A stretch of DNA of 64,000 nt from Eledone cirrhosa (taxonomy: Eukaryota), in assembly GCA_964016885.1 (NCBI GenBank), contig OZ024743.1, forward strand, positions 365,304,001-365,368,000, in the 5' to 3' direction. The notes beneath the pieces were generated by a model that did not search any database, was not told the DNA's origin, and worked only from the letters and a program-made list of their open reading frames with translations. Shown piece after piece: positions 2,934 through 63,854 of this stretch; positions within the stretch are counted from its first letter, which is position 1, and each line of letters starts with the position of its first letter. The translations under genes and the position numbers were made by a program.

Positions 2934-3250
2934 AAAAGCTAAACAGAAATAACAATACAATTGGTACAGTATTTGGAAGGAATATATAGCAGGAAGAGGG
3001 TCTTAACGTTTCGGACGCTAGTCCTTCATCAGAAGAAAGTGTGAGAAATTAGATAGATTGAAGAGACGGGCAGGGCGGAATCGGAAAAAATGATTTTAGA
3101 GAAAAATAACAGGTCCATTCATGTTGCCATCTCTGGAAAACTGTTGATGCTGGCGTTTGGTGTATGATAATCCTTTTGAAGAAAAGTGGATGATGTATCG
3201 AGTCTACCTGAAATGGAAAAAACCGTTTTGTATACGTGTGCGCGTGCGAA

Positions 3251-6594: not shown

Positions 6595-6651
<57 letters not shown>

Positions 6652-6660
<9 letters not shown>

Positions 6661-7055
6661 TGTACGTACAATATATTTGATAATATACTGTACATTTATT
6701 TTAAAACATTTTGAAGACCATTCGCTATGAATTTTAAAGTAGTGACTATGTCACGTACTTTCTAATTTTTGCTGGACCGGTATGTAAACATAACTAGAAT
6801 TCTATAAGAATCGAGTCTCTATAACTCTCGGCAGAAGCGAAGGGGTATGTAGTCTTGACAACCACTTACAAGTAAGAAATGGTACTACCGTCGATTACCC
6901 CCCATTACTTTTACCAAGACTAAGTACGTGACGTAGTCACTACTTTGAAATTCATAGCAAATGGTCTTCAAAATGTTTAAAAATAAACATACAGAATATT
7001 ATCAAATATACTATACGTACATTCATATATACATCGCTATTTCAGAGCACCAATA

Positions 7056-7058
<3 letters not shown>
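6652..7058 (+). repeat. Retrozyme/pLTR family B copy with inverted terminal segment, in (TA)n
   Basis: About 105-bp inverted repeat (6655-6760 vs 6922-7030) around a hammerhead; homologous to 24436-24955. Confidence 0.75.
6849..6898 (+). ncRNA. Type I hammerhead, U3:A8 variant (family B)
   Basis: GTAGTC-TTGACAA-weak stem II-GAAA-TGGTACTACCG-TC-GATTAC. Confidence 0.6.
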
Positions 7059-7094
<36 letters not shown>

Positions 7095-14684: not shown

Positions 14685-15155
14685 CTCTCTCTCTGTCTCT
14701 CCCCCCCCCTCTCTCTCTCCCCCCCCTCTCTCTCTCCCCCCCCTCTCTCTCTCTCTCTCTCTCGCTCTCTCTCATATATATATATATAACAACAATAACA
14801 ATAAATAACATAAAAGCAATTCTATACTTTCTGATCAGTGGATACATGCAATTTGTTGGGGGACATGCGGTGTTTTATTTTCTATTTAGTGTTGCATCAA
14901 ATAATACTAAATGCAAAAGTCCCTTTAATGTCTATCTAAAGTAATTATGTACATATATCCGAACATAAATTTCAGGCCGAATCATTGCAACACAGTAAAT
15001 GACAAAGCTGGACTTGTGAATATGACGGCCTTCCAAACAGTTTTTCTAACCTGTCAGGGAGATTAGATAGACGGAATCGTCCAGCCTCAATGGATTGAGG
15101 CTATGGTAAGACACCTCCTAGAATAGAACCTGCATTTATTGACCAAATGAATCTT

Positions 15156-15815
15156 TTAATCCCTCAGATATACCACTCTGGTGTAACACACCTTTAACCA
15201 CTCAGATATTCTACTCAGGTGTAACACACCTTTAACCACTCAGATATTCTACTCAGGTGTAACACACCTTTAACCATTCAGATATTCTACTCAGGTGTAA
15301 CACACCTTTAACCACTCAGATATTCTACTCAGGTGTAACACACCTTTAACCACTCAGATATTCTACTCAGGTGTAACACACCTTTAACCACTCAGATATT
15401 CTACTCAGGTGTAACACACCTTTAACCATTCAGATATTCTACTCAGGTGTAACACACCTTTAACCACTCAGATATTCTACTCAGGTGTAACACACCTTTA
15501 ACCACTCAGATATTCTACTCAGGTGTAACACACCTTTAACCACTCAGATATTCTACTCAGGTGTAACACACCTTTAACCACTCAGATATTCTACTCAGGT
15601 GTAACACACCTTTAACCATTCAGATATTCTACTCAGGTGTAACACACCTTTAACCACTCAGATATTCTACTCAGGTGTAACACACCTTTAACCACTCAGA
15701 TATTCTACTCAGGTGTAACACACCTTTAACCACTCAGATATTCTACTCAGGTGTAACACACCTTTAACCACTCAGATATTCTACTCAGGTGTAACACACT
15801 TTTAACCACTTAGGT
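15156..15815. repeat. 38-bp minisatellite, about 17 units
   Basis: Unit GGTGTAACACACCTTTAACCACTCAGATATTCTACTCA starting every 38 bp from 15180 to 15788; C>T variant in units 3, 7 and 12. Confidence 0.97.
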
Positions 15816-16202
15816 ATAACTCACCCAGCGGTATCATTTCCCATGATATCGCTACTCATTCAGTAACATACTACATTTAACTACTAAGTTCACTGATAGG
15901 CAGTTTACTCTTCCTTGCGTGATTATAGGAAAATTCTTTAAAAATAGAAAGCTGCACACGACTCAATGCATCCACCCACCTCTTTTCTGTCATATCTGTG
16001 TAGTTCCATGTGCTTGATATTTTTGTTGTGTTTTGTTGTGATATGTGGAATCGTTAGTCGAGGGTTTAATGAAATGGTGAATGCAGCTCTGCTTTCGTTG
16101 TAAGCACTTTGCAGCTTGCTGGCCTGGGATGCAAGAGAAAAGTAAATCTATAAATATTGTCCATGTGAGTGTATACACATACATGCATACACTCATGTAC
16201 AC

Positions 16203-22481: not shown

Positions 22482-22764
22482 AATATATATATATGTGTGT
22501 GTGTAGAAAGGTAACACACGAGTTGATATATATTAAAACAAATAGTAGAAAGGAAAAAGGGTTTTTTTTCCCTGTAGAAAATGTTGAAAAGATATTTTTA
22601 GTGAAATTTGAAAGCATTAATTTATTTACAATACCGGTTTCAGCATTAAATGCATTGTCATTGCGGATATGCAGAATATTGTTAAGTTGCATATTTGTAC
22701 AAATAGTGGAGATATTGATAATAACAAAAAGAGAAAAAAAGAAAATATAATTTAATATACATTA

Positions 22765-24345
22765 CGGAATTCCGTAGAAAACTAAGACTTAGCAAGGAAC
22801 TACACGCCAAGTACAATGAGGACGACTCACTAGCTAGAAACAGAAGCAACTACACCCCATCAAAAGGTAAGAACAAATTCCTTGTCCAATTCTGCGAACA
22901 CATTACAAATTACCCATATCAACACCTACACAGACATAAACACAGGCCAAACCTCAACAAGAAAGAATGGGATGAGCTGAACAGATTAAAGAATGATAAA
23001 ACTATAACAATCAAAGAGGCGGATAAAGGGAGTGCGGTAGTCCTTATGGAGACAAAATATTATACAACCCTAGTACTCTCATCTTTAGAAAACGAAACAT
23101 ACTACGAAAAGGCTCAACACTACAGCCAACAGAAAATAATGAGAAACCTAAAAACTCTAACAACCCTTTACAGAGAAGGACTTGCCGACAAGGAATACAA
23201 CTATATCACTCACTGACTTCAAAAGCAAACTCAGCCTTTTCTACGGTATCCCTAAGATACACAAAAGCGAAATAGTAAGTAAGGTATGCAAGGAAGCTAC
23301 AGACATATTCATCAATGTCCCCTCACCCAACGACCTCAAATTAAGACCTATAATAGCAGGTCGCGCCTGTGAAACCCACCGCCTTAGTAACTTCCTAGAT
23401 ATCCTGTTAAAACCATTCCTGAAACATATTAAAAGCTACATAAGGGACGACCTCGATATTCTCAACCACCTCCCCAAAATATTTAATAATGAACATACCC
23501 TACTAGTGTCTTTTGATGTAATCAACCTTTATTCCAATATCCCACACAACCTAGGAATAGAGGCAATCCAATTCTGGTTAGAAAATTACCCCAATCAACT
23601 ACCACACCGCATCATAAAAGAATTCGTAATGGAAGGCCTCAAATTTATCTTGGAGAATAACTACTTCGAATTCGATGCCAAATTCTACAGACAGAAATCC
23701 GGAACTGCCATCGGCACGAAAACGGCCCCCACTTACGCCAACCTCGCTATGGGATACTTGGAAATCACTCTCTACCGAAAAGCACTAGATAAATACGGAA
23801 ACCCCTTCTATCTCCACATAGAAAAAAACTGGAAGAGATATCTGGATGATTGCTTCATTCTCTGGCATGAAAGCATAGAAAGACGTTTTGAATTTAAAAA
23901 AAACTTCTAAGTGGACTCAACACAAACATTCAATTTACAATGGAATACAGCCACGAACAACTTCCTTTCCTCGACATCCTTATCAAGAAAACCAACAACA
24001 AAATAGAAACAGACATATACTATAAACCCACAGACTCCAAACAGTATCTTCCATCTAACTCATGCCACCCTAGACAAACCAAAATGAGCATTCCCTACAA
24101 CCTAGCCAAAAGGATCTGCACAATAGTATCTGATAAATACACGTGCTACATACGATTAGAAGAATTAAATAACACACTTATTAGCAGGAATTACCCACCA
24201 TCCCTAATCAACAATGGATTCCAACGTGCCCTAAAACTCAACATCCAGGAACTTAGACACCCCAAACCAAGGAATGAATCAAAAATGAATCAAACTCTAC
24301 CATACATCTCCACACACAATCCCCTTAACAATGAGGCATTGTTAT
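22765..24345 (+). mobile_element. Penelope-like element (Neptune-like) reverse transcriptase, disrupted and lacking the GIY-YIG domain
   Basis: ADKG.AVV, FYGIPKIHK, LRPII, SFDVINLYSNI, Q.SGTAIGT..AP.YANL, RYLDD, LPFLD, YYKPTD, SCHP; frameshifts near 23200 and 23900. Confidence 0.93.
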
Positions 24346-24435
24346 ACACGCATATATATATATATGTGAAATAAAGTGTCTTGCTCAAGGACATAACGCA
24401 TCGCCCGGTCCAGGAATCGAACTCACAAATTAGAA

Positions 24436-24948
24436 TTGGTGCTCTGAAATAGCGATATATATATGAATGTATATATAGTGTATTTTGCAATACACTGTAT
24501 GCTTAATTAAAAGCATTTTGAAGACCTTACGCTATTGTTTTAAAGTAGTGACAATGTCACTTACTTCAATTTTCAGCAAACAATGGGAGATAAGCTGACA
24601 GAGCTCTGTTTCGTACTTGTTGGTACTTATCAAAGCTCAGCACTCCTCCTGTCTGCTGAAAATTATGAATGTTGGATTCTTATAGAATTCCAGTAATAAA
24701 GAGGAACTGATTATACAGAGCGGTTGCCGGTCCAGCAAAAATTGAAAATTAGATTTGGTGCTCTGAAATAACGATATATATATATGGATGTATATATAGT
24801 GTATTTTGCTGAAATGGATGTATATATAGTGTATTTTGCTGAAAATTGAAGTAAGTGATATTGTCACTACTTTAAAACAATAGCGTAAGGTCTTCAAAAT
24901 GCTTTTAATTGAGCATACAGTGTATTGCAAAATACACTATATATATAC

Positions 24949-24955
<7 letters not shown>
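24436..24955 (-). repeat. Retrozyme/pLTR family B: about 1.2 tandem units (period about 319 bp) plus inverted end
   Basis: TTGGTGCTCTGAAATA at 24436 and 24755; inverted copy at 24830-24955; hammerhead inside. Confidence 0.75.
24592..24638 (-). ncRNA. Type I hammerhead, U3:A8 variant (family B)
   Basis: GAGCT-TTGATAA-GTAC(CAACAA)GTAC-GAAA-CAGAGCTCTG-TC-AGCTT. Confidence 0.82.
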
Positions 24956-24995
<40 letters not shown>

Positions 24996-24996
<1 letters not shown>

Positions 24997-25420
24997 TACC
25001 TGAATGACCCGGTTACTGCTATTCTTATTCAGATTAGTAGACAATAAATATGAAGATTTTTTTTCTCATAATTATTCAAAATATTTATATTTTATTTTAA
25101 AAATATCAAAATTGTAATGATAATAGAATTTAGAAATGAAAATCTGTCAATCTTGAAGCACCTCAGGATAAACATTATTCATTGTTTAATGTTTTGTTGG
25201 TGTCCAAATGAATAAATTGTTGCTGCTTCCAACTCGTGAGCAACCAACATAGAGTTGACCGTGGGAGAAACATGTAGTAGAGAGATCACGTCAAACTACC
25301 TTGAGGGATTGACCCTGAGATTTGTTAATTGAAATAAAAAAAACTTAGTTTGACTGGAAACTGAACAAATAGAACAGCTGTAGGTATGAGAGGAAGTTTT
25401 AGAATAAAAACATTTGTTTT
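24996..25420 (-). mobile_element. Helitron 3' fragment (PIF1-type helicase motifs V/VI)
   Basis: Minus translation SINKSQGQSLKVV ... CFSHGQLYVGCSRVG; decayed 3' terminus near 24996. Confidence 0.85.
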
Positions 25421-29386: not shown

Positions 29387-29467
29387 TTGTATATACGCGC
29401 ACACGCATACACACATACACACACACACAAATATATATATATATATAGTGTTATAGTTTGGGAGGAT

Positions 29468-29632
29468 CTTGCTGCCAATGAAAACACACGCACCTGTTGG
29501 ATTTCACTTCAATTTATTACAAATTTCCGGCTGGTTGTTTGGTTCGATAACCGAATGGTTGTTTTTATTGGCAGCATGACCCTCCCAAAGTATAACACTA
29601 TCTGTTTCAACACACGTTTTCAAAAACGAAGT
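29468..29632 (+). repeat. Naiad-related pLTR fragment with internal inversion, in (TA)n
   Basis: ATGACCCTCCCAAAGTATAAC motif shared with 32206, 53041, 57199 and 61666. Confidence 0.7.
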
Positions 29633-30180
29633 ATATATATATATATGCAGACATACATATATATACTAAAATAAAATTATGTCAGTCATATTACACCTTA
29701 AGTAGTTCAAACGCTATATAGGGTAAATACTATTTTGTAGAGCTTCATATTTCCAAAATTATATTTAGGTGTAAAAATTTACAATATATTAAGAGTAAAC
29801 ATTGCAAGCAGAAAAAATACATTTTATAATATAGTATAATTTCTACTTACACATTGCCGTGGCTTCTTCCGACAAAGAACTAGATATTAATTAAGATACT
29901 TAATTAATAAATTAGACACCGAAAACCCATCAATAAGCATTGTTTATATATATATATAAAGGATCGATCGACTTTCGTCAAATCGGACCGAGGAAACAAT
30001 GTTTCCGTCGGTCTTTCCAGTTGCTAGTACTATCTATCGGTCGCAACTCCAGGTAGAAGGAACAACGTGAAATAAAGTGTCTTGCCCAAGGACATAACGC
30101 ATCGCCCGGTCCACGAATCGAACTCACAACCTCAAGATTGTGAATCCAATTCTCTAACCACTCAGCCACTCGCCTTAACT

Positions 30181-30597: not shown

Positions 30598-30674
<77 letters not shown>

Positions 30675-30682
<8 letters not shown>

Positions 30683-31075
30683 AGTATGTATGTATGTATG
30701 TATACGTACATACATGTATGTATACAGACGTACAGTAGTATGTATATATATATATACATACATGCACACATCTATATATGCACGTATCGGTTTACCGAAC
30801 ATTTATTATAATGTTCGGTCTGTCCGTTTGTAAACAAACAAATAGCCCGAATTACGCCGTACAGTGTTTAGGCAACCACGTCACCTTTTTGTTCAACACT
30901 GACACAGGAACGATGTGTTAGTTTCAAGCTTATTAGCTATCGTCACCATTGTATACCTTCCTGCCAGATGGTTGAACGTCCGAAAGTATATACTTTCCTT
31001 ATGCATATTAACGGCTGAGCAGTCACTTTGCATATCGAGTGAGTTCAGTCGGCCGGGCACACCGAAAACGATAAA

Positions 31076-31078
<3 letters not shown>
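30675..31078 (-). repeat. Retrozyme-like family C monomer (degenerate hammerhead 30910-30952)
   Basis: Colinear with 62960-63370; the core here reads GTGACGA. Confidence 0.75.
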
Positions 31079-31896: not shown

Positions 31897-32057
31897 TTAT
31901 ATATATATACTCTGTAAGAGTCATGTTGTATTTCACTTCAATTTATTATAAATTTCCGGTTGTGTGGTTGTTTCGATAACCGGAAGGTCTCTCCTTTCTT
32001 CTGTCCTACAACATGTGTAGGACAGAACAAAGGAGAAATACACAAAATAAAGACCTA

Positions 32058-32100
32058 GTCACTGAGGACGTCACAGAATGTGTGACGAAAGAGCTTTGAC
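32058..32100 (+). ncRNA. Minimal hammerhead in Naiad-related pLTR (31925-32290)
   Basis: GTCA-CTGAGGA-C-GTCAC..GTGAC-GAAA-GAGC-TT-TGAC. Confidence 0.75.
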
Positions 32101-32439
32101 AACATATAAACAATCTTCCAATTATCAAACCAACCAACGAACCAACCGGAAATTTATAATAAATTGAAGTGAAAACTAACAGGTGCGTGTGTTTTTATTG
32201 GCAACATGACCCTCCCAAAATATAACAATATCTGTTTCAACACACGTTTTCAGATAAGTTATCTCGCAAAACAAATTAAAAAACGAATTATATATATATA
32301 CGAAGAGAGACAGTATCACGTATACCTCTTCAGTTTTGTTACATCATCCTCTTGTGCACATTACGTTTGATTACAACACAGTTTGTCGATTGATTGATGA
32401 ACCAACACCGATTGCTTGGAACGTAACCTTATTATATAA

Positions 32440-33671: not shown

Positions 33672-34138
33672 ATTATATCTAACTTTGAGTCAAAATAGAT
33701 AGAAGATATCTGAATTAATTTCCAATACCATCGTCACATCTTCTACACTATCAGCTGATTTGCATTTTTTGCACCTTTTAGTATGGCGGATATTTAAATA
33801 TATTTACATTACCAATAATATTTAATACGACCCTAAAGTAGTATATGCAGGAAGTGCTGGACTCTGAAAAAGATTTCTTCTAGTTGTTTATAAATTTGCA
33901 CCTTTTTCAGTAACCCCTAATATTTTAATATTATTATAAGACTTTAAATAATATGTTTGCCATCCTAAAATGGAGATATTTCAATTTTTAAAAATTAAAA
34001 TTCTTTTTTAACTAGTTAAGTTTTTCCAAATATCTAAAATTAAAGTTAATTTAAGTACTTTTTGTAATAAAAAAACTTAATTTCTCTTGTTTATTAATGT
34101 CATATTAAAAATATTAACTGTAGATAGATAACCTTGAT

Positions 34139-36032
34139 ATGATGTCTACTGCAAAGAAGCTGAAGTTAGATACCAGCAGTAAGGTTAGACAGTGGTGTGA
34201 TGATTATGTTAGATATGGATTTCAAAAAGCTGACACTAAAAAAGATACACCAGATCAGCCCATGTGTTTGCTATGTTCAAAAGTTCTATCAAATAGCTGT
34301 TTAAATCCTGCAAAACTTAAAAGACACCTTGATACTAATCACACCAATGATAAAAGCAAGTCACTGGAATACTTTACTTTGCTGAAAAACAACATCAAAA
34401 AATCACAAGCTAATATGTATGACTTGTTTTGTAAAAAGTCAGATAGAAATAAAGCTTTAACAAGAACATCTTTTGAAATTTCACATTTGATTGGTAAAAA
34501 CAAGAAACCATTTACATTAGGAGAACAGTTAATTCTGCCAAGTATAAAAATTGCTACAGAGAATCTTTTTGAAAGCTGCAGTATTAAGGACAAAGAAAAA
34601 TTAAGCCAGTTACCATTGTCAGCAAATACCGTAAAAAGAAGGATAATTGATATTTCTTCTGATATAGAAAATCAGATACTAACTGCACTAAAGAAAAGCA
34701 CATGTTTTGGTCTGCAAGTGGACGAAACTACGGATATTAATAACAAGGCTCAAATAATTTGCTATGTACGGTTTGTAGACCTTGATAAAAAAGAATTAGT
34801 AGAAGAGTATTTGTTTTGTCTGGTATTAGACATCACAACTAAAGGTCAATATATATTCAATAAAATTGAAGAGTATTTTAAAAAAATGGTGTATCTTGGA
34901 GCAAGTTGACTTCAATAACAACAGATGGAGCAGCTGCAATGACTGGTAAAAATTCTGGTTTGATTGCAAAAATTAAAGAACAGACCCCAATTGTATTTCA
35001 AATCATTGTATGATTCGTTGAGAGGTTTTGTGTTCAAAAAAATTCAAAGACAGAGATGCTCAAATATTAAATGACCAGCTGAAAGACATTGTCAACATTA
35101 TCAATTTGATCCATGCAAGAGCAAAAAATTCTAGAATGTTTGAATCTATTTGTGAATCTTCTGGAAGTAATTATAATAGATTGTTATTGAACAATGATGT
35201 GCGTTGGCTGTCTTTTGGGGATGCTATGAAGAGAGTTTTTGAACTGAGAGAAAAAATAATAGTTTTTCTAAAAAAACAGAATGATGAAAGAGCAAGTGTA
35301 TTAGAAACCAATGAATGAAATGTGCAACTCGCTTATTTAGTAGACATTTTTGGTGAACTGAACAAACTAAATAAGTGTCTTCAGGGTAACAATGCAGATA
35401 TTTTTACTTCAATCAATTTTATTACATATTTTCAATCAAAATTAAACATCTTTATAAAAAGAATTGAATCGGACAATTACTCATTACTTTCAAACCTTGA
35501 AATAGAGCTTAAAAAGAGAGAAGATTTTGACTCCAGCAATCTAAAGAAGATTATTCTTTCTCATTTAAATGTGCTTTCCACAAGTTTTTCAGATTATTTT
35601 GACTTGATGGAAAAAGATATTGTTAGCGGAAATTTATGGATAAAAAACCCGTTCACCGAGATCGAGCAGTTAGTGTCAGAAAATGACGCTGGAAATTGTA
35701 AAAATTTAGTACCTGCACAATGCTTACATCAGTTCATGGATTTGAATTCAAACGAAGACCTAAAAGTGATATTCGAAAGCAGAAAGAAAGAACTATGGAT
35801 CGACTTATTCTTGATTGGGTAGTTTAATGAAATCAGCCAACTTGCATTGAAATATTTGACTTTATTCCCATCTAGCTACTTGTGCGAAGGGTTTTCGCAG
35901 TTGGTAGAAATCTGCACAAAGAAGATTAATAAACTGTCAGCAATTGACGAGTGTATGAGACTGGCATTAACTAGTGTTGAACCTCGATTTTCTAAACTCA
36001 CTGATGAGGCGCAGCAGCAGAAAAGCAACTAG
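34139..36032 (+). pseudogene. hAT (Buster-like) transposase pseudogene
   Basis: BED finger CLLC..LKRHL...H, LQVDETTD, TTDGAAAM (out of frame), VRWLS, LAYLVDIF, FPSSYLCE.FS; broken by frameshifts and stops. Confidence 0.93.
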
Positions 36033-49299: not shown

Positions 49300-50005
<706 letters not shown>

Positions 50006-50174
50006 AAAATTGAGTAAAAGGTAACGTTTCCAAGGCAATTGTGGGTGGAGGGAGCGGACTAAAAAATGTATGTTTTTACTTTGGGAGCGGACATCCAAAG
50101 CAAAAACATACATTTTTTAGTCCGCTTCGTTCCACCCATAATTACCTCGGAAACGTTACCTTTTACTCAATTTT

Positions 50175-50225
50175 GCTGTCTGAAGACATCACGATATCTA
50201 TCGTCATGGAAATATGTTTAACGGT
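50175..50225 (+). ncRNA. Type I hammerhead, right arm of the palindrome
   Basis: GCTGT-CTGAAGA-CATCACGATA..TATCGTCATG-GAAA-TATGTT-TA-ACGGT. Confidence 0.75.
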
Positions 50226-50633
50226 TTAATTTATAAAAGACTCCACAACTTCACATTTTCCTCCTTAAATATATTATTTATATGTATGTAAAAGGTAAAC
50301 AGAAATAACTACACAATCGGTACAGTATATGGAAGGTATATATTAGGTTAGCTCTTGAAATAGCAGGATAAGGGTCTTAACGTTTCGGATGCTAGTCCTT
50401 CAATAGAAGAACATATGAGAAATTAGATAGAATGAAGGGACGGGCGGGGTGGAAATAGAAAAAATGTTTTTAGAGAAAAATGACAGGTCCATTCATGCTG
50501 CCATCTCTTGGAAAACTGTTGATGCTGGCGTTTTGTGTATGATATTATTTTTTAGAAAAGTGGATGATGGAGCGCGTCTACTTGAAATGGAAAAAATACT
50601 GTTTTGTATAAAGAGCTATACTTATGCGCGCGC

Positions 50634-52682: not shown

Positions 52683-52898
52683 ATATATATATATATATAT
52701 ATATATAAACGGAAAAAATGAAACAAAATTTCATTTCCCACTCTTAGTACGGCTGTTACTTAAATATAAGTATGTACACGTACATACATATATGTATACA
52801 GACGTACAGTAGTATGTATATATATATACATACATGCACACATATATATATGTACGTATGGATTCACCGAACATTTATTATAACGCTCGGTGTGTTGG

Positions 52899-52959
<61 letters not shown>

Positions 52960-52960
<1 letters not shown>

Positions 52961-54853
52961 ACGGCGATGAATTAGTTTTGCGAGGTTTTTTATATGAAAT
53001 CGTGTGTCGAAACAAATATTGTTATACTTGGGGAGGGTCATATTTGTGTAATAATATTGCCAGAATTAATAGCTATATTTGCTCCGAATACAGGTTTTGT
53101 TGGTGGTCCTGTTGTCGGGTCGTCGACTGTCTTGTGGTCTTTGCGGAGCCCATACAAGGGTGGTATGCCATTGTTGGACGCCTGGAAGTTGTTGGCAGTG
53201 CGTCTGCTTGGCTTTAGGATGTCGGTCCACATCATCATGTGAGCGTTGAGGATTTTCTCTCTCCCATCATGTATTTGCTGTGCAATTTGGCTCATGTTGG
53301 TGATGTGGGGTTGCATAGCCTTGATGTAGTTCGGCATGCTGTCTATTGACATCCTACCAGACCTATCCGTGGGTAGACATACTACCTCACCATCCCTTGT
53401 GCGCTGCTTGAGGCTAACCAAGCCTTCTACAGGTTTCCTCCCAAGTTGTTGGACCCCTGGTCTGCTCTGTCTCTTAATATACCGGTCTACTATTTGTCTA
53501 ATCTTATTTCTAGCTATGGTGAACTGTGCCTCTGTCTCGTCATCTATTTGTTGTGGTATGCAAACTCTTTTATTAAAGGGTAACCTCGTAGGATAGATAT
53601 TACCTATCTTATATGTTTTGTTAGCTGGGTTGAAGAATAGTTTCTCTAAAGGGTTGTCATTATATCTATCATCATAGTTGTGTGTGTTGCTATTATTGTT
53701 ATTATGGTGGTTGTTGTTGTTCCTTTCATTAGCATTATTATTATTGTTATGATTGCTAGATGTATTGTTGCTGCGATTGTTAGGTGTATTGTTGTTGTTT
53801 TCTTCACCGTTATTGTTGTTGTTACTGTTATTTCTACCATTGTGGTTGTTACTTTTATTATGTTTCTTGTTTTTGTTGTGTCTATCATTAATGTTGCTAC
53901 ATATATTATTTCTATTATTACCACTGTGGTTGTTGTTGTTATTCGTATTGTTACCGTTATTACTACTGTGGTCGCTGCTGCTGTGTCTGTAGTTAATATT
54001 TATATTATTATTATTATTGTGGTTGTTGTTGTTGTTCTGTCTATCGTTAATATTACTACCATTATTACTATTTCTCACTCTCCAGCTATTGTTATTGTTA
54101 TGACTATTACTATTATAGCTGTTATTTCTATACTCAGAGTTATTGTTTATATTACTACTATCGTTATTATTGTTGTTGTTGTCCGTATAGTTGTTGTTGT
54201 TGTTTACTTTTGCATTCCAACGTATTTTTGTCAAACACTTTTCCAGCTCCGTTTTGCACTCAATAGGGTTAATCTTTTTGTAGATGGCAAATTTTGGTGG
54301 TAGCTGCAGGATTTGTTGCTCTTGTTCACTGATTAAAGTGTTCCCATAAATATTTACTGTGTGGTCATTGGTAAATTCTTCCGGTAGTTCTACATCAGTC
54401 ATACGGATATTGTTGATGTTATCTGAGTATTTTTGTAAATATTCTATTTTTCTTTCTTCTAGTTTTTTCTTATTCATCCATTATAATTTCTTATTGAAAT
54501 GCCTATTGCATTCGTTTCGGGCGTATTTCGTTTCACGTCGAATGACGCTCATGAAGTCATCCCTCTCGTTTGGGGTGGTGAGATTTCGGACTTCCTTACC
54601 GTTAATGCATTTCTGTCTGTAAAGTTCGTTAACTTTTGTGTATGTTGTTCTTTTCATATTAACTGTTATTGTGTGTTTTAGTCGTTCAGCTTGTGTTTTG
54701 TTCAATAATAAATTATTTACTTGTTTTGATATGTTTGTTGTGATATGTTTTGATATGTTTTAACAAATATTGTTATACTTGGGGAGGGTCATATTTGTGT
54801 AATAATATTGCCAGAATTAATAACAGAACACACTCACTGTTTGGTTGGTTTTT
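52960..54853 (-). mobile_element. Naiad-type Penelope-like element, 5' half (inverted relative to the 3' half)
   Basis: ORFs 54481-54705 and 53038-54477 are in frame across one TAA: LQLPPKFA, K.RW, PTDRSGRM, LYGLRKDHK, P.KPV.GA; pLTR-end copies at both boundaries. Confidence 0.85.
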
Positions 54854-56702
54854 GCAAAGACCACAAGACAGTCGACGACCCAACAACAGGACCACCAACA
54901 AGACCTATATGCGGAGCAAATATAGCTAGCAACTACAGGATCTCCTACTTCCTCTCAATGGTTATACGCCCCATAATCAAGATGTCCCCAGATGTATGTG
55001 ACAGTACAGAGGACCTCCTCAGCAGAATCAGTGAGTGCAACAAAAACAGGAACATATCCAACTGCATAATAGGCAGTATGGATGTGGTATCACTATACCC
55101 ATCCATTAACATTAATTTTGCTGTGGAAAAATGTGTGGAGATGATCAGATAGAGTGAGGTGGAGTTCTGCGACCACGACACAGACGAATTGGGCCTCCTA
55201 TTTAGACTTACCTACGACAAGGACTACCTAGACAGCCATGACCTTAGACGTTTCTGCCCCCCAAAAAGACTCCCATGGGAAGGTGGATTGGGTGGACCAA
55301 AGCTATACGAAACCCCCAAAACAATGATCAGGTAAGAAAAATGGTCGCACATGCAATAGGGGCTAGTATCAAAACTCCTCTAAAGGGCCACATATTCAAG
55401 TTCAACGAGATCTACACCCAAAATGAAGGAGCAGCTATTGGCGTCAGCATAGCTGGTGACGTTGCCAACCTTTTTATAGTATGGTGGGAAAGGAGACTCA
55501 AAGATCTCCTTGATGAGAGCTCCATAGACGTCATCATGTACTCTCGTTACGTAGACGACATCAATATAGTAATAAGGACATCCCCACAAGAGAGCACTAA
55601 CAAGTTTGATTTAGAACGTAGCACAATGGAAAGCATCCAGCAGATAGCTAATTCCATACACCAGAGTATAACTGTAACTATCGACTACCCTTCCAAACAC
55701 CCTAACAATAGACTACCTGTATTAGACACGGAACTCTGGATTAACACTATAGACGACAGAGCCCAAATTCTCCACTCACACTATGCTAAACACATGGCCT
55801 CCAAATACCTGATACTCAAAAACTCAGCAATGTCCAGTAGTGCTAAGTTTAATATTCTGATCGCTGACTTGGTACGAGTGATGAAGAACGTGTCCCGCAT
55901 GTGCGACCCAACAGAAATGGAAAGACACATCCAACACGTCATCAACCGCATGCAGTTCTCTGGCTACAACCAAAGAGACAGAGTCAGAGTATACGAAGGA
56001 GCCACGGAAAAGTATAAGACCTTCATAGAACTGGACATGAAAGGAATTTGCCCATTATACAGGAGCAAATCATGGAATAGCTTAGATAGGACTAGACATA
56101 AGATCGGGAAAGCCACCTCATGGTACGACAACCAGAGATACCAGAGTGTCATGTTTGTGGACGCTACCCCTGGAGGGAAATTAGCTAACCAGTGTAGAAA
56201 GGCCCTGAGAAAGACCCACTTAAAGATTAAGGTGGTAGAAAATCCAGGAACCACCATAAAATCCCTGATCAGCAGAACCTACCCTTTTAAGAAAACCCAC
56301 TGTACTAATAGGAAATGTATCATATGTAGAGTAAACCCCCGGATAAACTGTAAAACTAGAAACGTAGTCTATAGCATAAGATGTACAGAGGGTACTTGCA
56401 GAAACATGACAACAACATACATAGGCGAGACAGCTTGTAGCATAGGTGAAAGGATAGACCAACACTTGGGAGAACTAAAAGGACGAAAAAACGGTTCAGT
56501 ACTATACGAACATGCCAGACAACAACACAACGGTAACATAGACAACATAGAAATTAGAATAATATCTAAACATAGAAATGGCCCAGCAGATAGGCAAATC
56601 AGAGAGGCCAGCGAAATAGAACTTAGAAGGCCAAGGCTAAACAGAAAAAATGAATGGAATAACAACAACACCCAAACAAACAACATTGACCTAAGAGAAG
56701 TA

Positions 56703-56741
<39 letters not shown>

Positions 56742-57216
56742 ATACATACACAAGCACAATAACAACAAACACATATAAACACACACTAGTAAACTAAGAT
56801 AGAATACATTAACCAATACACAGTCACCCAAACAAGAACACACATCAAACAAAACACTATACACACACGCAAACGCATGCGCAGAGAAGACAAAAAAAAA
56901 ACAACAAATAAATAAATAAATAAACAGACTAAATAAAGATGACGTAAGCATACAATGCAACGGGAGGAAACATAATAGCACCACTGACGATGTTGCAGAT
57001 GTGCAACGAAAGAACTTTGATAGACTATATATATGTGTTTGTGTCTATATTGTATCTGTATTTTTGACCGTTGGTCAGTCAATGGCAGCATTGAGGACCG
57101 AATAAATTAAATTAACCGATATAAAGGACACAGAAGCGAAAACCAACCAAACAGTGAGTGTGTTCTGTTATTAATTCTGGCAATATTATTACACAAATAT
57201 GACCCTCCCCAAGTAT

Positions 57217-57225
<9 letters not shown>
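54854..57225 (+). mobile_element. Naiad-type Penelope-like element, RT core, GIY-YIG endonuclease and 3' pLTR
   Basis: KDHK, RPICGA, SMDVVSLYPSI, ELGL insert, Q.EG.AIG, RYVDD, LPVLD, C4 linker, VVYSIRC..YIGET with CCHH; TAG at 55150 and a frameshift/deletion near 55275. Confidence 0.9.
56981..57020 (+). ncRNA. Minimal hammerhead in the Naiad pLTR
   Basis: CTGACGA-T-GTTGCA(GATG)TGCAAC-GAAA-GAAC-TT-TGA; stem I weak. Confidence 0.7.
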
Positions 57226-61497: not shown

Positions 61498-61583
<86 letters not shown>

Positions 61584-61586
<3 letters not shown>

Positions 61587-61954
61587 CGTTTCTGAATTTG
61601 TTTAGCAAGATTCTTTATCTGAAATCGTGTGTTGAAACCGATATTGTTATACTTTGGGAGGGTCATGTTGCCAATAAGAAACACACGCACCAGTTGCTTT
61701 CACTTCAATTTATTATATATTTATAAATTTACAAATTTACAAACTTATAAATTTCTGGTTGGTTGGTTGGTTCCACAACCAGATAGTTGTTTATATATAT
61801 AGTCATAGTCCTTTCGTCACACACTCTGTGACCTCTTCAGTGACTGGGGATTCCTTTCTTCGTTTCTGTGCCTTTCCTTTCTTCTATACTACGCCATTTT
61901 GTTTCTGTTTCACACAGAAAGAAAATGGCGTAGTATAGAAGAAAGGAAAGGCAC
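61584..61954 (-). repeat. Naiad-related pLTR copy with fold-back 5' end
   Basis: MTLPKYNN start at 61666, hammerhead 61801-61845, hairpin 61867-61954. Confidence 0.78.
61801..61845 (-). ncRNA. Minimal hammerhead ribozyme
   Basis: AGTCA-CTGAAGA-G-GTCAC..GTGAC-GAAA-GGAC-TA-TGACT. Confidence 0.8.
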
Positions 61955-62050
61955 ATGCTTTGCAGCATAGTTACGTCCCTTTACGATCTGAGTTCAAATC
62001 CGGCCGAGGTTAACTTTGCTTTTCATCCTTACGGGGGTCGATAAAATAAA

Positions 62051-62874: not shown

Positions 62875-62935
<61 letters not shown>

Positions 62936-62959
62936 TATATATATATATAAATATATATA

Positions 62960-63630
62960 TAAGTATGTATACGTACATACATATATGTATACAGACGTAC
63001 AGTAGTATGTATATTCATACATACATGCACACATATATTTATGTACGACTGGGTTTACCGAACATTTATTACAATGTTCGGTTTGTTTGTAAACAAACAT
63101 CCCGAATTAAGCCGTACAGTGTTCGGCAAACATCGTTGCCCTTATGTTCAACACTGACAAAGGAACGATGAACTACTTTCTAGCTCCTTAGCTGTCATCA
63201 GCACCGTATACCTTCCTGTCAGTCGATTGAACGTTTGAAAGTATATACTTTCCTTATGCATATTAACGGCTGAGCAGCCTAATGTGCATATCGAGTGAGT
63301 TAGTCGGCCGGGCGAACCGAAAACGATAAATGGAAAAAATGAAATTTCATTTCTCACTCTTAGTACGGCTTATAACAGTGTTGAACATAAGGGCAACGAT
63401 GTTTGCCGAACACTGTACGGCTTAATTCGGGCTGTTTGTTTACAAACAAACCGAACATTATAATAAATATTCGGTAAACCCATACGTACATATATATATG
63501 TGTGCATGTATGTATGTATATACATACTACTGTACCTCTGTATACATATATGTATGTACGTATGCATACTTATATTTAAGTATCAGCCGTACTAAGAGTG
63601 AGAAATGAAATTTCATTTTTTCCATTTATA
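62960..63630 (-). repeat. Retrozyme-like family C monomer plus inverted, permuted partial copy
   Basis: 62960-63370, then an inverted copy 63376-63630 spanning the monomer junction. Confidence 0.8.
63165..63207 (-). ncRNA. Minimal hammerhead (family C)
   Basis: ACGGTG-CTGATGA-C-AGCT(AAGG)AGCT-A-GAAA-GTAG-TT-CATCGT. Confidence 0.68.
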
Positions 63631-63639
63631 TATATATAT

Positions 63640-63854
63640 TAGAAATAGAATAGCTTTCACCGTATTTTTTTTTACTAGAGAAATTTTAGTCTGATAATGG
63701 GGTTTAGAACCCTCAGATAAATGGAAAAAGATGAGTTTTGATGTACATGTACATCAATACTCATCTTTTTCCATTTATCTGAGGGTTCTAAACCCCATTA
63801 TCAGACTAAAATTTCTTTAGTAAAAAAAATACGGTGAAAGCTTTTCTATTTCTA
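63640..63854. repeat. Near-perfect palindrome of about 215 bp, between (TA)n tracts
   Basis: Centre TGTACATGTACA near 63747; arms differ at only a few positions. Confidence 0.92.

Follow-up and report, generated by a model that had tools for sequence, protein, structure and literature searches.

A short hammerhead-bearing repeat with a retrozyme-like unit, very probably derived from a Penelope-like element (PLE), in the genome of Eledone cirrhosa

The locus described here raises the question of whether a short repeat built around a single hammerhead ribozyme was copied from a small circular RNA or is a fragment of a longer retroelement. In the window (the whole stretch of 64,000 nt of Eledone cirrhosa DNA that was analysed), whose AT-rich sequence abounds in microsatellites and dispersed repeats, a 16-mer is found at 24436 and again 319 bp further at 24755, with one inverted match at 7038-7053. 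Its 18-nt version has three matches against 0.08 expected, a number reached in none of 100 shuffles. The 319-bp period around one hammerhead, which a preliminary description of this locus had reported, is borne out, and a single minus-strand motif lies between the two positions of the 16-mer. The two copies, B1 and B2 (Table 1), are 73.5% identical over 272 nt, and their units of 319 and 294 nt are non-coding, with a GC content of 0.34-0.35 and without an LTR layout. No loci were found when bacterial and archaeal genomes were searched for exact 22-nt matches.

Our study suggests, on balance, that B1 and B2 are independent insertions of a non-autonomous mini-PLE of retrozyme-like character, for which a circular or head-to-tail RNA would have served as template, with the enzyme supplied in trans. 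It is highly probable that the element derives from a PLE and was inserted by PLE machinery; the presence in cells of a 319-nt circle joined at the GUC site is, judging from the sequence, doubtful. The preliminary description had spotted a real feature correctly, had drawn it incompletely and had somewhat over-read it. The inverted arms, the one-sided tail, the (TA)n flanks, the intron-like signals and the adjoining PLE RT had been overlooked.

Table 1. Coordinates of the two copies, of their parts and of the neighbouring features in the window
Feature	Position	Strand	Description
Unit of B1	24428..24746	-	319 nt, without long ORF, GC 0.34; defined by the repeat period
Type I hammerhead of B1	24591..24639	-	U3:A8 core, U3 at 24633; pattern scan and fold
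Extended stem I enclosing the ribozyme, B1	24565..24665	-	about 25 bp with internal loops; constrained fold
Intron-like segment of B1	24444..24564	-	121 nt, GTAAGT donor, TTTCAG acceptor; short hairpins when folded
3' tail of B1	24427..24454	-	missing from the inverted arm; about 26-28 nt, at most 38 if the arm begins within the internal AT run
5'-truncated second copy (read-through, partial tandem), B1	24746..24809	-	tail plus about 35 nt
Perfect 30-bp tandem duplication across the B1 inversion junction	24784..24843		found with TRF
Inverted 5' arm of B1	24835..24962	+	copy of 24455-24584; 126-128 bp; 125 matches, 3 mismatches, 2 gaps
(TA)n run at the outer end of the B1 arm	24938..24995		likely target
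Dispersed-repeat fragment forming the B1 3' flank	24366..24428	-	63 nt, 96.8% identical to 30067-30129; presumably SINE-like
Unit of B2	6761..7060	+	period of 294 between CTAAT motifs at both ends
Hammerhead of B2	6849..6898	+	U3:A8 core at 6855, cleavage after 6892
Intron-like segment of B2	6924..7045	+	122 nt, GTACGT donor, TTTCAG acceptor
Inverted 5' arm of B2	6648..6760	-	copy of 6922-7034; 113 bp, 103/113 identical
Broken PLE ORF	22725..24344	+	N-terminal part and RT with two frameshifts, no endonuclease part; outside B1, about 85 bp away

The U3:A8 core of the B1 hammerhead is a known PLE-associated variant, with about 1,300 matches in Schistosoma (PMC4209133). The ribozyme has a stem I of 6 bp, a stem II of 4 bp with a 6-nt loop followed by GAAA, and a stem III that is a 12-nt perfect palindrome; its cleavage site falls between 24597 and 24596, after the C of GUC. 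The duplex of the extended stem I arms has a predicted energy of -27.6 kcal/mol. None of 200 shuffled windows contained a motif as strong as this one, and the earlier claim of a U3:A8 hammerhead within a unit of about 320 nt holds. A strict pattern scan of the window gave four hammerhead motifs (none in 30 shuffles) and a relaxed scan gave eight hammerhead-like motifs against a mean of 0.045 in shuffles. With Rfam there was no match in the window at the gathering level; HH9 matched B1 below threshold over a 261-nt stretch (20.1 bits, E 0.011; the gathering score is 52), and at E up to 10 the matches listed (150 of 313) were of the repeat-driven miRNA type. The ribozyme of B2 was missed by both pattern scans and by Rfam.

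Comparison of the two ribozymes covered 14 stem pairs, nine of which have changed, and seven of these nine still pair (P about 0.01 in a simulation), which argues that the source lineage was selected for the ribozyme fold. Stems I and III of B2 have covaried, and both broken pairs among the changed ones sit in its stem II, where two of the four pairs are lost. When the stem I arms are cross-paired between the copies 3 of 6 pairs are formed, against 6 of 6 within each copy. With its stem II half broken, the B2 ribozyme is probably impaired. Folded as a circle, the B1 unit reaches -85.6 kcal/mol (z -6.8), a value as low as which was found in none of 100 shuffles; the B2 circle has a z of -0.6, and 26 of 100 shuffles are as low. 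The lowest-energy circle of B1 has its ribozyme core mispaired, and 6.4 kcal/mol must be spent to reach the active fold.

The longest ATG frames in the units have 28-32 codons. In B1 the sole ATG frame terminates within the tail and no frame that begins with an ATG runs out of it. We do not regard the 28-codon frame that terminates there as coding, as 9 of its 28 residues differ between B1 and B2 and the B2 arm has an in-frame stop.

Read in the ribozyme sense, B1 is made up of (TA)n, an inverted arm, a truncated copy of 64 nt, the 319-nt unit and the 3' end, while B2 consists of (TA)n, an inverted arm, the unit and (TA)n again. In both copies the 3' end is placed 168 nt downstream of the cleavage site, and the copies are therefore co-linear; the circular permutation between copies that had been claimed is contradicted by this, and no variable start point was seen among the two. 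Head-to-tail multimers had also been anticipated, whereas neither of the two copies in the window has two complete ribozymes. With a single ribozyme each, neither B1 nor B2 can release a unit-length monomer. Reverse transcription for more than one unit length stands for B1, where 64 nt are read through, but it is limited to this copy, the partial tandem in B2 being at most about 7 nt. The proposal that the second copy is bounded by the junction is correct in that the start of B2 differs by 0-8 nt from the junction that B1 reads through, a range due to one short indel whose placement is ambiguous, and B2 spans the interval between junctions to within about 8 nt; its start, however, is fused to the 113-bp inverted arm and is not a free end.

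The tail is present on one side only in both copies, with a length of 26-38 nt, its inner edge being blurred by an AT run, and both arms begin in this internal AT run, 26-38 nt inside the 3' end. The B2 arm ends at the base of the long stem I and the B1 arm ends inside it. Each arm is closer to its own unit (125/128 in B1, 103/113 in B2) than the copies are to each other over the same stretch (90/111), and therefore each arm was made anew at insertion, the B1 arm being the more recent. The 64-nt read-through aligns with the 3' end of B1 with 59 matches, 3 mismatches and 1 gap. The inversion junction of B1 has a 5-nt microhomology, and the 30-bp duplication across it shows template switching. 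Three of the four flanks of B1 and B2 are (TA)n, those of B2 lying at 6595-6657 and 7059-7090. When target-site duplications of more than 4 bp were checked, B2 was found within (TA)n on both sides and the two flanks of B1 differed from each other. The 3' flank of B1 has a 9-nt in-register match to the sequence that follows the tail in the read-through, which is one case, noticed after the fact (a match of this kind is found at 112 of 127,940 positions, self hits counted, and the duplex energy is reached by 98 of 17,947 positions). ARAGORN detected no tRNAs in the window.

Intron-like signals are found in both units, with the donor at the base of stem I and the acceptor 15-17 nt ahead of the 3' end. 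A splice-signal rule in its broader form was passed by 270 of 12,760 background windows (2.1%) and by three of nine insert ends, namely B1, B2 and the unrelated insert 32008-32290; the six ends that failed include three relatives of the 32062 family. Introns of a similar kind are known from PLE repeats (PMC8557442, PMC4209133, PMC6765202). The signals lie in conserved hairpin and tail blocks, and other constraints could keep them. Back-splicing in B1, which would join the upstream acceptor at about 24763 to the donor at 24564 around a 198-nt exon with inverted-repeat flanks, was ranked low, since the arm would cover the donor.

The broken PLE ORF next to B1 gave a Pfam RVT_1 match with an E of 1.7e-7 and shows 43-55% identity to named molluscan RT/GIY-YIG proteins; the best named matches of the RT at 23161 are from Mytilus, Saccostrea and Octopus bimaculoides, and the relatives carry a C-terminal GIY-YIG domain. 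Its missing endonuclease part was not found beyond B1. A tblastn search of the window with five named molluscan PLE proteins gave matches only at 22767-24344 and 55413-56480, so no RT plus GIY-YIG ORF lies within the unit. The earlier statement that no RT ORF is present is thus right for the unit itself and overlooks the broken PLE RT on the opposite strand. This RT, which does not resemble the unit at the DNA level, was also considered as its parent and rejected, being on the opposite strand and having a dissimilar 5' region (best score reached by 8 of 200 shuffles, in one of 24 tests). In comparisons of the PLE ends in the window with the unit, none of 24 beat all 200 shuffles, and a profile search found only the five known pieces at E < 0.5. 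At 24344-24428 the RT stops abruptly at a short (AT)n, followed by a fragment without both ends, which we take to be SINE-like; this arrangement may be due either to local deletions or to copying of the fragment in the same cDNA as B1 by template switching. A 67-nt intron-like stretch with a donor and a pyrimidine-rich acceptor is present at 22511-22577, before the broken ORF and just past a microsatellite.

Another PLE, at 53041-57224, with an RT and a GIY-YIG-like end, has its parts permuted and inverted. Its Asn-rich N-terminal part lies on the minus strand, and its 3' repeat contains a ribozyme-like motif near 56984. The best named match of the ORF at 55248 is from Octopus vulgaris (65%). 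This PLE is related to the short inserts 61572-61960, 32008-32290, 29445-29640 and 52961-53071. The first two, which are ORF-less and carry ribozymes, align with the 3' end of the ORF-bearing PLE 54754-57224, and therefore short ribozyme inserts here can be derivatives of PLE repeats. Moreover, the PLE ORFs in the window indicate that enzymes for trans-mobilisation existed in the genome.

In the mechanism that we prefer, a PLE pseudo-LTR with its ORF lost would travel as a self-contained unit of about 300-320 nt. A source locus outside the window would be transcribed as a head-to-tail multimer, which the hammerhead may cut at GUC; the ends, kept close by the long stem I, would then be ligated into a circle. 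In the case of PAc, AT-rich DNA is nicked, both strands are extended and two internal start sites bound the tail (PMC11167929). By analogy with this in vitro work, a PLE RT/GIY-YIG protein acting in trans would nick both strands of AT-rich DNA, and the cDNA would begin at two internal RNA sites about 26-38 nt apart. The main strand would come from the outer start and, in B2, extend for about one unit, while in B1 it would continue for 64 nt of a second round. The inner start, in the internal AU run able to pair with (TA)n, would yield the short inverted arm with its end at or inside stem I. Finally, microhomology would join both cDNAs head to head. The layout in the DNA consists of a fixed 3' end, a tail, a regenerated arm, a cleavage site crossed without indel and one read-through.

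That the unit is self-contained is suggested by the start of B2 so close to the B1 junction, by the lack of a B1 frame leaving the tail from an ATG, and by the canonical 6-bp/4-bp shape of the ribozyme, which is not the minimal PLE shape. A circular or multimeric template is favoured by the B1 3' flank, which matches sequence following the tail only in a circle or multimer, and by the B1 circle, which folds far better than shuffles. Several points weigh against the reading: there are only two copies and one junction, none with two ribozymes; B2 has a half-broken stem II and a circle that folds like shuffles; the lowest-energy circle of B1 mispairs the core; the intron-like signals suit a Pol II pseudo-LTR origin and fit the rival explanation equally; and template switching could also have made the 64-nt repeat. 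Further, PAc ribozyme mutants insert normally in vitro, no RNA-seq reads of PAc end at the cleavage site, and its initiation is reported not to be homology-directed (PMC11167929).

The rival just mentioned, a solo pseudo-LTR of a longer PLE (autonomous or internally deleted) for which no small circle is needed, is an appreciable possibility. On a long transcript the RT would start at the tail, close to the 5' end, and run off at the transcription start, leaving a fixed piece of about 300 nt, and in B1 a re-priming or template switch prior to the inversion would add the truncated copy of 64 nt. The fixed 5' boundary seen here would equally result from a transcription start, template switching is evident at the B1 junction, and the B2 circle folds no better than chance. 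The inverted arm, the tail, the (TA)n target and the intron-like signals are all features of PLE pseudo-LTRs, which hold a start site and a 5'-UTR intron (PMC8557442); donor and acceptor signals are present in both copies over a background of 2.1%. Solo pseudo-LTRs and opposite-strand ribozyme pairs are on record (PMC4209133, PMC3846280), the inserts 61572-61960 and 32008-32290 match a PLE 3' end in this very window, and in both copies there are 7 nt over which the start of the unit resembles the end of the tail, in line with discrete pieces having been joined end to end. This explanation is weakened in that no PLE end in the window resembles the unit, the ribozyme is canonical in shape, and no B1 frame leaves the tail from an ATG, unlike in pseudo-LTRs with an ORF start (PMC11167929, PMC3846280); the 9-nt flank match would also be left unexplained.

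It is improbable that the element is a PLE-derived monomer whose 64-nt repeat and 30-bp duplication arose at the DNA level, by repair or slipped replication at a TA-rich site with inverted repeats, or in the assembly. The tandem duplication at the junction is perfect, and the neighbouring RT and SINE-like fragments are cut off with their missing parts not nearby, a sign of local rearrangement, but the repeated tail differs from the 3' end at 3 of 62 positions and by a gap, hence it is no recent assembly echo, and it joins the unit just where B2 begins. Very improbable is a MITE-like DNA transposon with a TA-run target, or a DIRS-like element. MITE-like elements have long terminal inverted repeats, and DIRS-like elements have inverted ends with an internal junction copy. 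Long inverted repeats and TA flanks do occur in both copies; however, the repeats are asymmetric, with the tail on one side, the arm length differs between the copies, and the repeats are homogeneous within a copy and 19% apart between copies. Moreover, a covarying ribozyme lies in the middle, and the internal repeat has a direct orientation and is nearly missing from B2.

Returning to the preferred reading of a non-autonomous mini-PLE, its likeness to metazoan non-LTR retrozymes (Cervera & de la Pena 2020, PMC7229834; bioRxiv 10.64898/2026.07.22.740005) lies in a size of 150-450 bp, a GC content below 50%, the lack of an ORF, one canonical type I hammerhead per unit and, in B1, a strongly self-paired predicted circle. 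Mussel units are 350-390 bp long, and the units here 319 and 294 nt. PLEs have been proposed as both the mobiliser and the origin of non-LTR retrozymes; mobilisation of animal retrozymes by PLEs was proposed in PMC7229834, and co-occurrence and repeat similarity back it (Li, Clavereau & Pollet 2026, bioRxiv 10.64898/2026.07.22.740005). The canonical ribozyme shape is the type linked to retrozymes (PMC7229834), and the minimal shape is that of PLEs (PMC4209133). According to the 2026 definition, an active retrozyme needs a tandem with two ribozymes (bioRxiv 10.64898/2026.07.22.740005), whereas the present family has monomer-type copies in the window and is therefore filed here as a non-autonomous PLE derivative with a retrozyme-like unit. 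No account of an inverted arm, a tail or intron-like signals of the kind seen in B1 and B2 was found for retrozymes in the consulted text of these two papers.

The layout of the two copies conforms to the PLE insertion pattern, which includes partial tandems, inverted 5'-truncated copies, a 30-40-bp tail and microsatellite targets (PMC8557442, PMC3846280, PMC8969392). As far as the available text of the sources goes, EN+ PLEs (Penelope/Poseidon, Neptune) share with B1 and B2 the tail-less inverted 5'-truncated copy and the tail (both copies), the partial tandem (one of two), the ribozyme inside the repeat, the U3:A8 variant, AT-rich or microsatellite targets, microhomology junctions and an intron in the repeat, for which only the signals are present here. 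On the other hand, EN+ PLEs carry an RT/GIY-YIG ORF, which the present unit does not have, and no parent element of the unit was found in the window; their ribozyme is minimal, not canonical; and the distance from the cleavage site to the 3' end, 168 nt in our copies, is 85-92 nt in PAc (derived from PMC11167929). Non-autonomous Chlamys PLEs such as MRC1 (PMC8557442) are likewise ORF-less, with pseudo-LTRs and head-to-tail insertions, but MRC1 is algal, from a clade without canonical hammerheads, and likeness to autonomous families is known there, whereas none was found in the window here. The idea that circular templates give more-than-unit cDNA has been published for PLEs (PMC4209133). No account of cephalopod retrozymes or of this family was found in the literature consulted, in which few subscription papers and repeat databases are covered, and so it may have been catalogued before.

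A stronger form of the preferred reading, which we hold to be rather unlikely, would have a retrozyme circle of about 320 nt in a cephalopod, one whose U3:A8 hammerhead is active, and the genomic copies would record a PLE-type enzyme copying that circle. There would then be two fixed internal start sites, B2 would be a stall at its own start after one round, B1 would represent strand displacement into a second round, and the target would pair with RNA 3' of the tail, which is present only in a circle or multimer. A pseudo-LTR intron would also have been kept, and a spliced unit of 198 nt may accompany the 319-nt unit. If this is true, animal retrozymes would be tied to the PLE machinery by insertion signatures instead of by co-occurrence and repeat similarity. 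Small ribozyme-bearing PLE derivatives are common and one more family is ordinary; the modest value of this one is mechanistic, in a retrozyme-sized unit with a PLE tail and inverted arm. Whether a PLE RT copies circles could conveniently be asked with a template of about 300 nt whose start sites are fixed.

Other observations were made in the window. Seven further hammerhead-like motifs, at 3032 (-), 30502 (+), 32062 (+), 49035 (-), 50180 (+), 61840 (-) and 62226 (-), belong to at least five other repeat families, and several of them have fold-back or inverted 5' ends and (TA)n flanks. At 49955-50230 a head-to-head inverted pair with ribozyme-like sequence on both strands adjoins a long (TA)n. 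A repeat family with a 203-bp inverted arm and TA-rich ends is found at 30609-31076 and 62876-63640, and also at 52695-52900; the pattern scans found no ribozyme motif in it. A broken reading frame on the minus strand at 25160-25340 has motifs that we take to resemble the end of a Helitron/PIF1 helicase, and the broken ORFs at 34124-35819 presumably derive from a hAT-type DNA transposase. A 38-bp minisatellite at 15155-15817 has 17 copies which are 97% identical.
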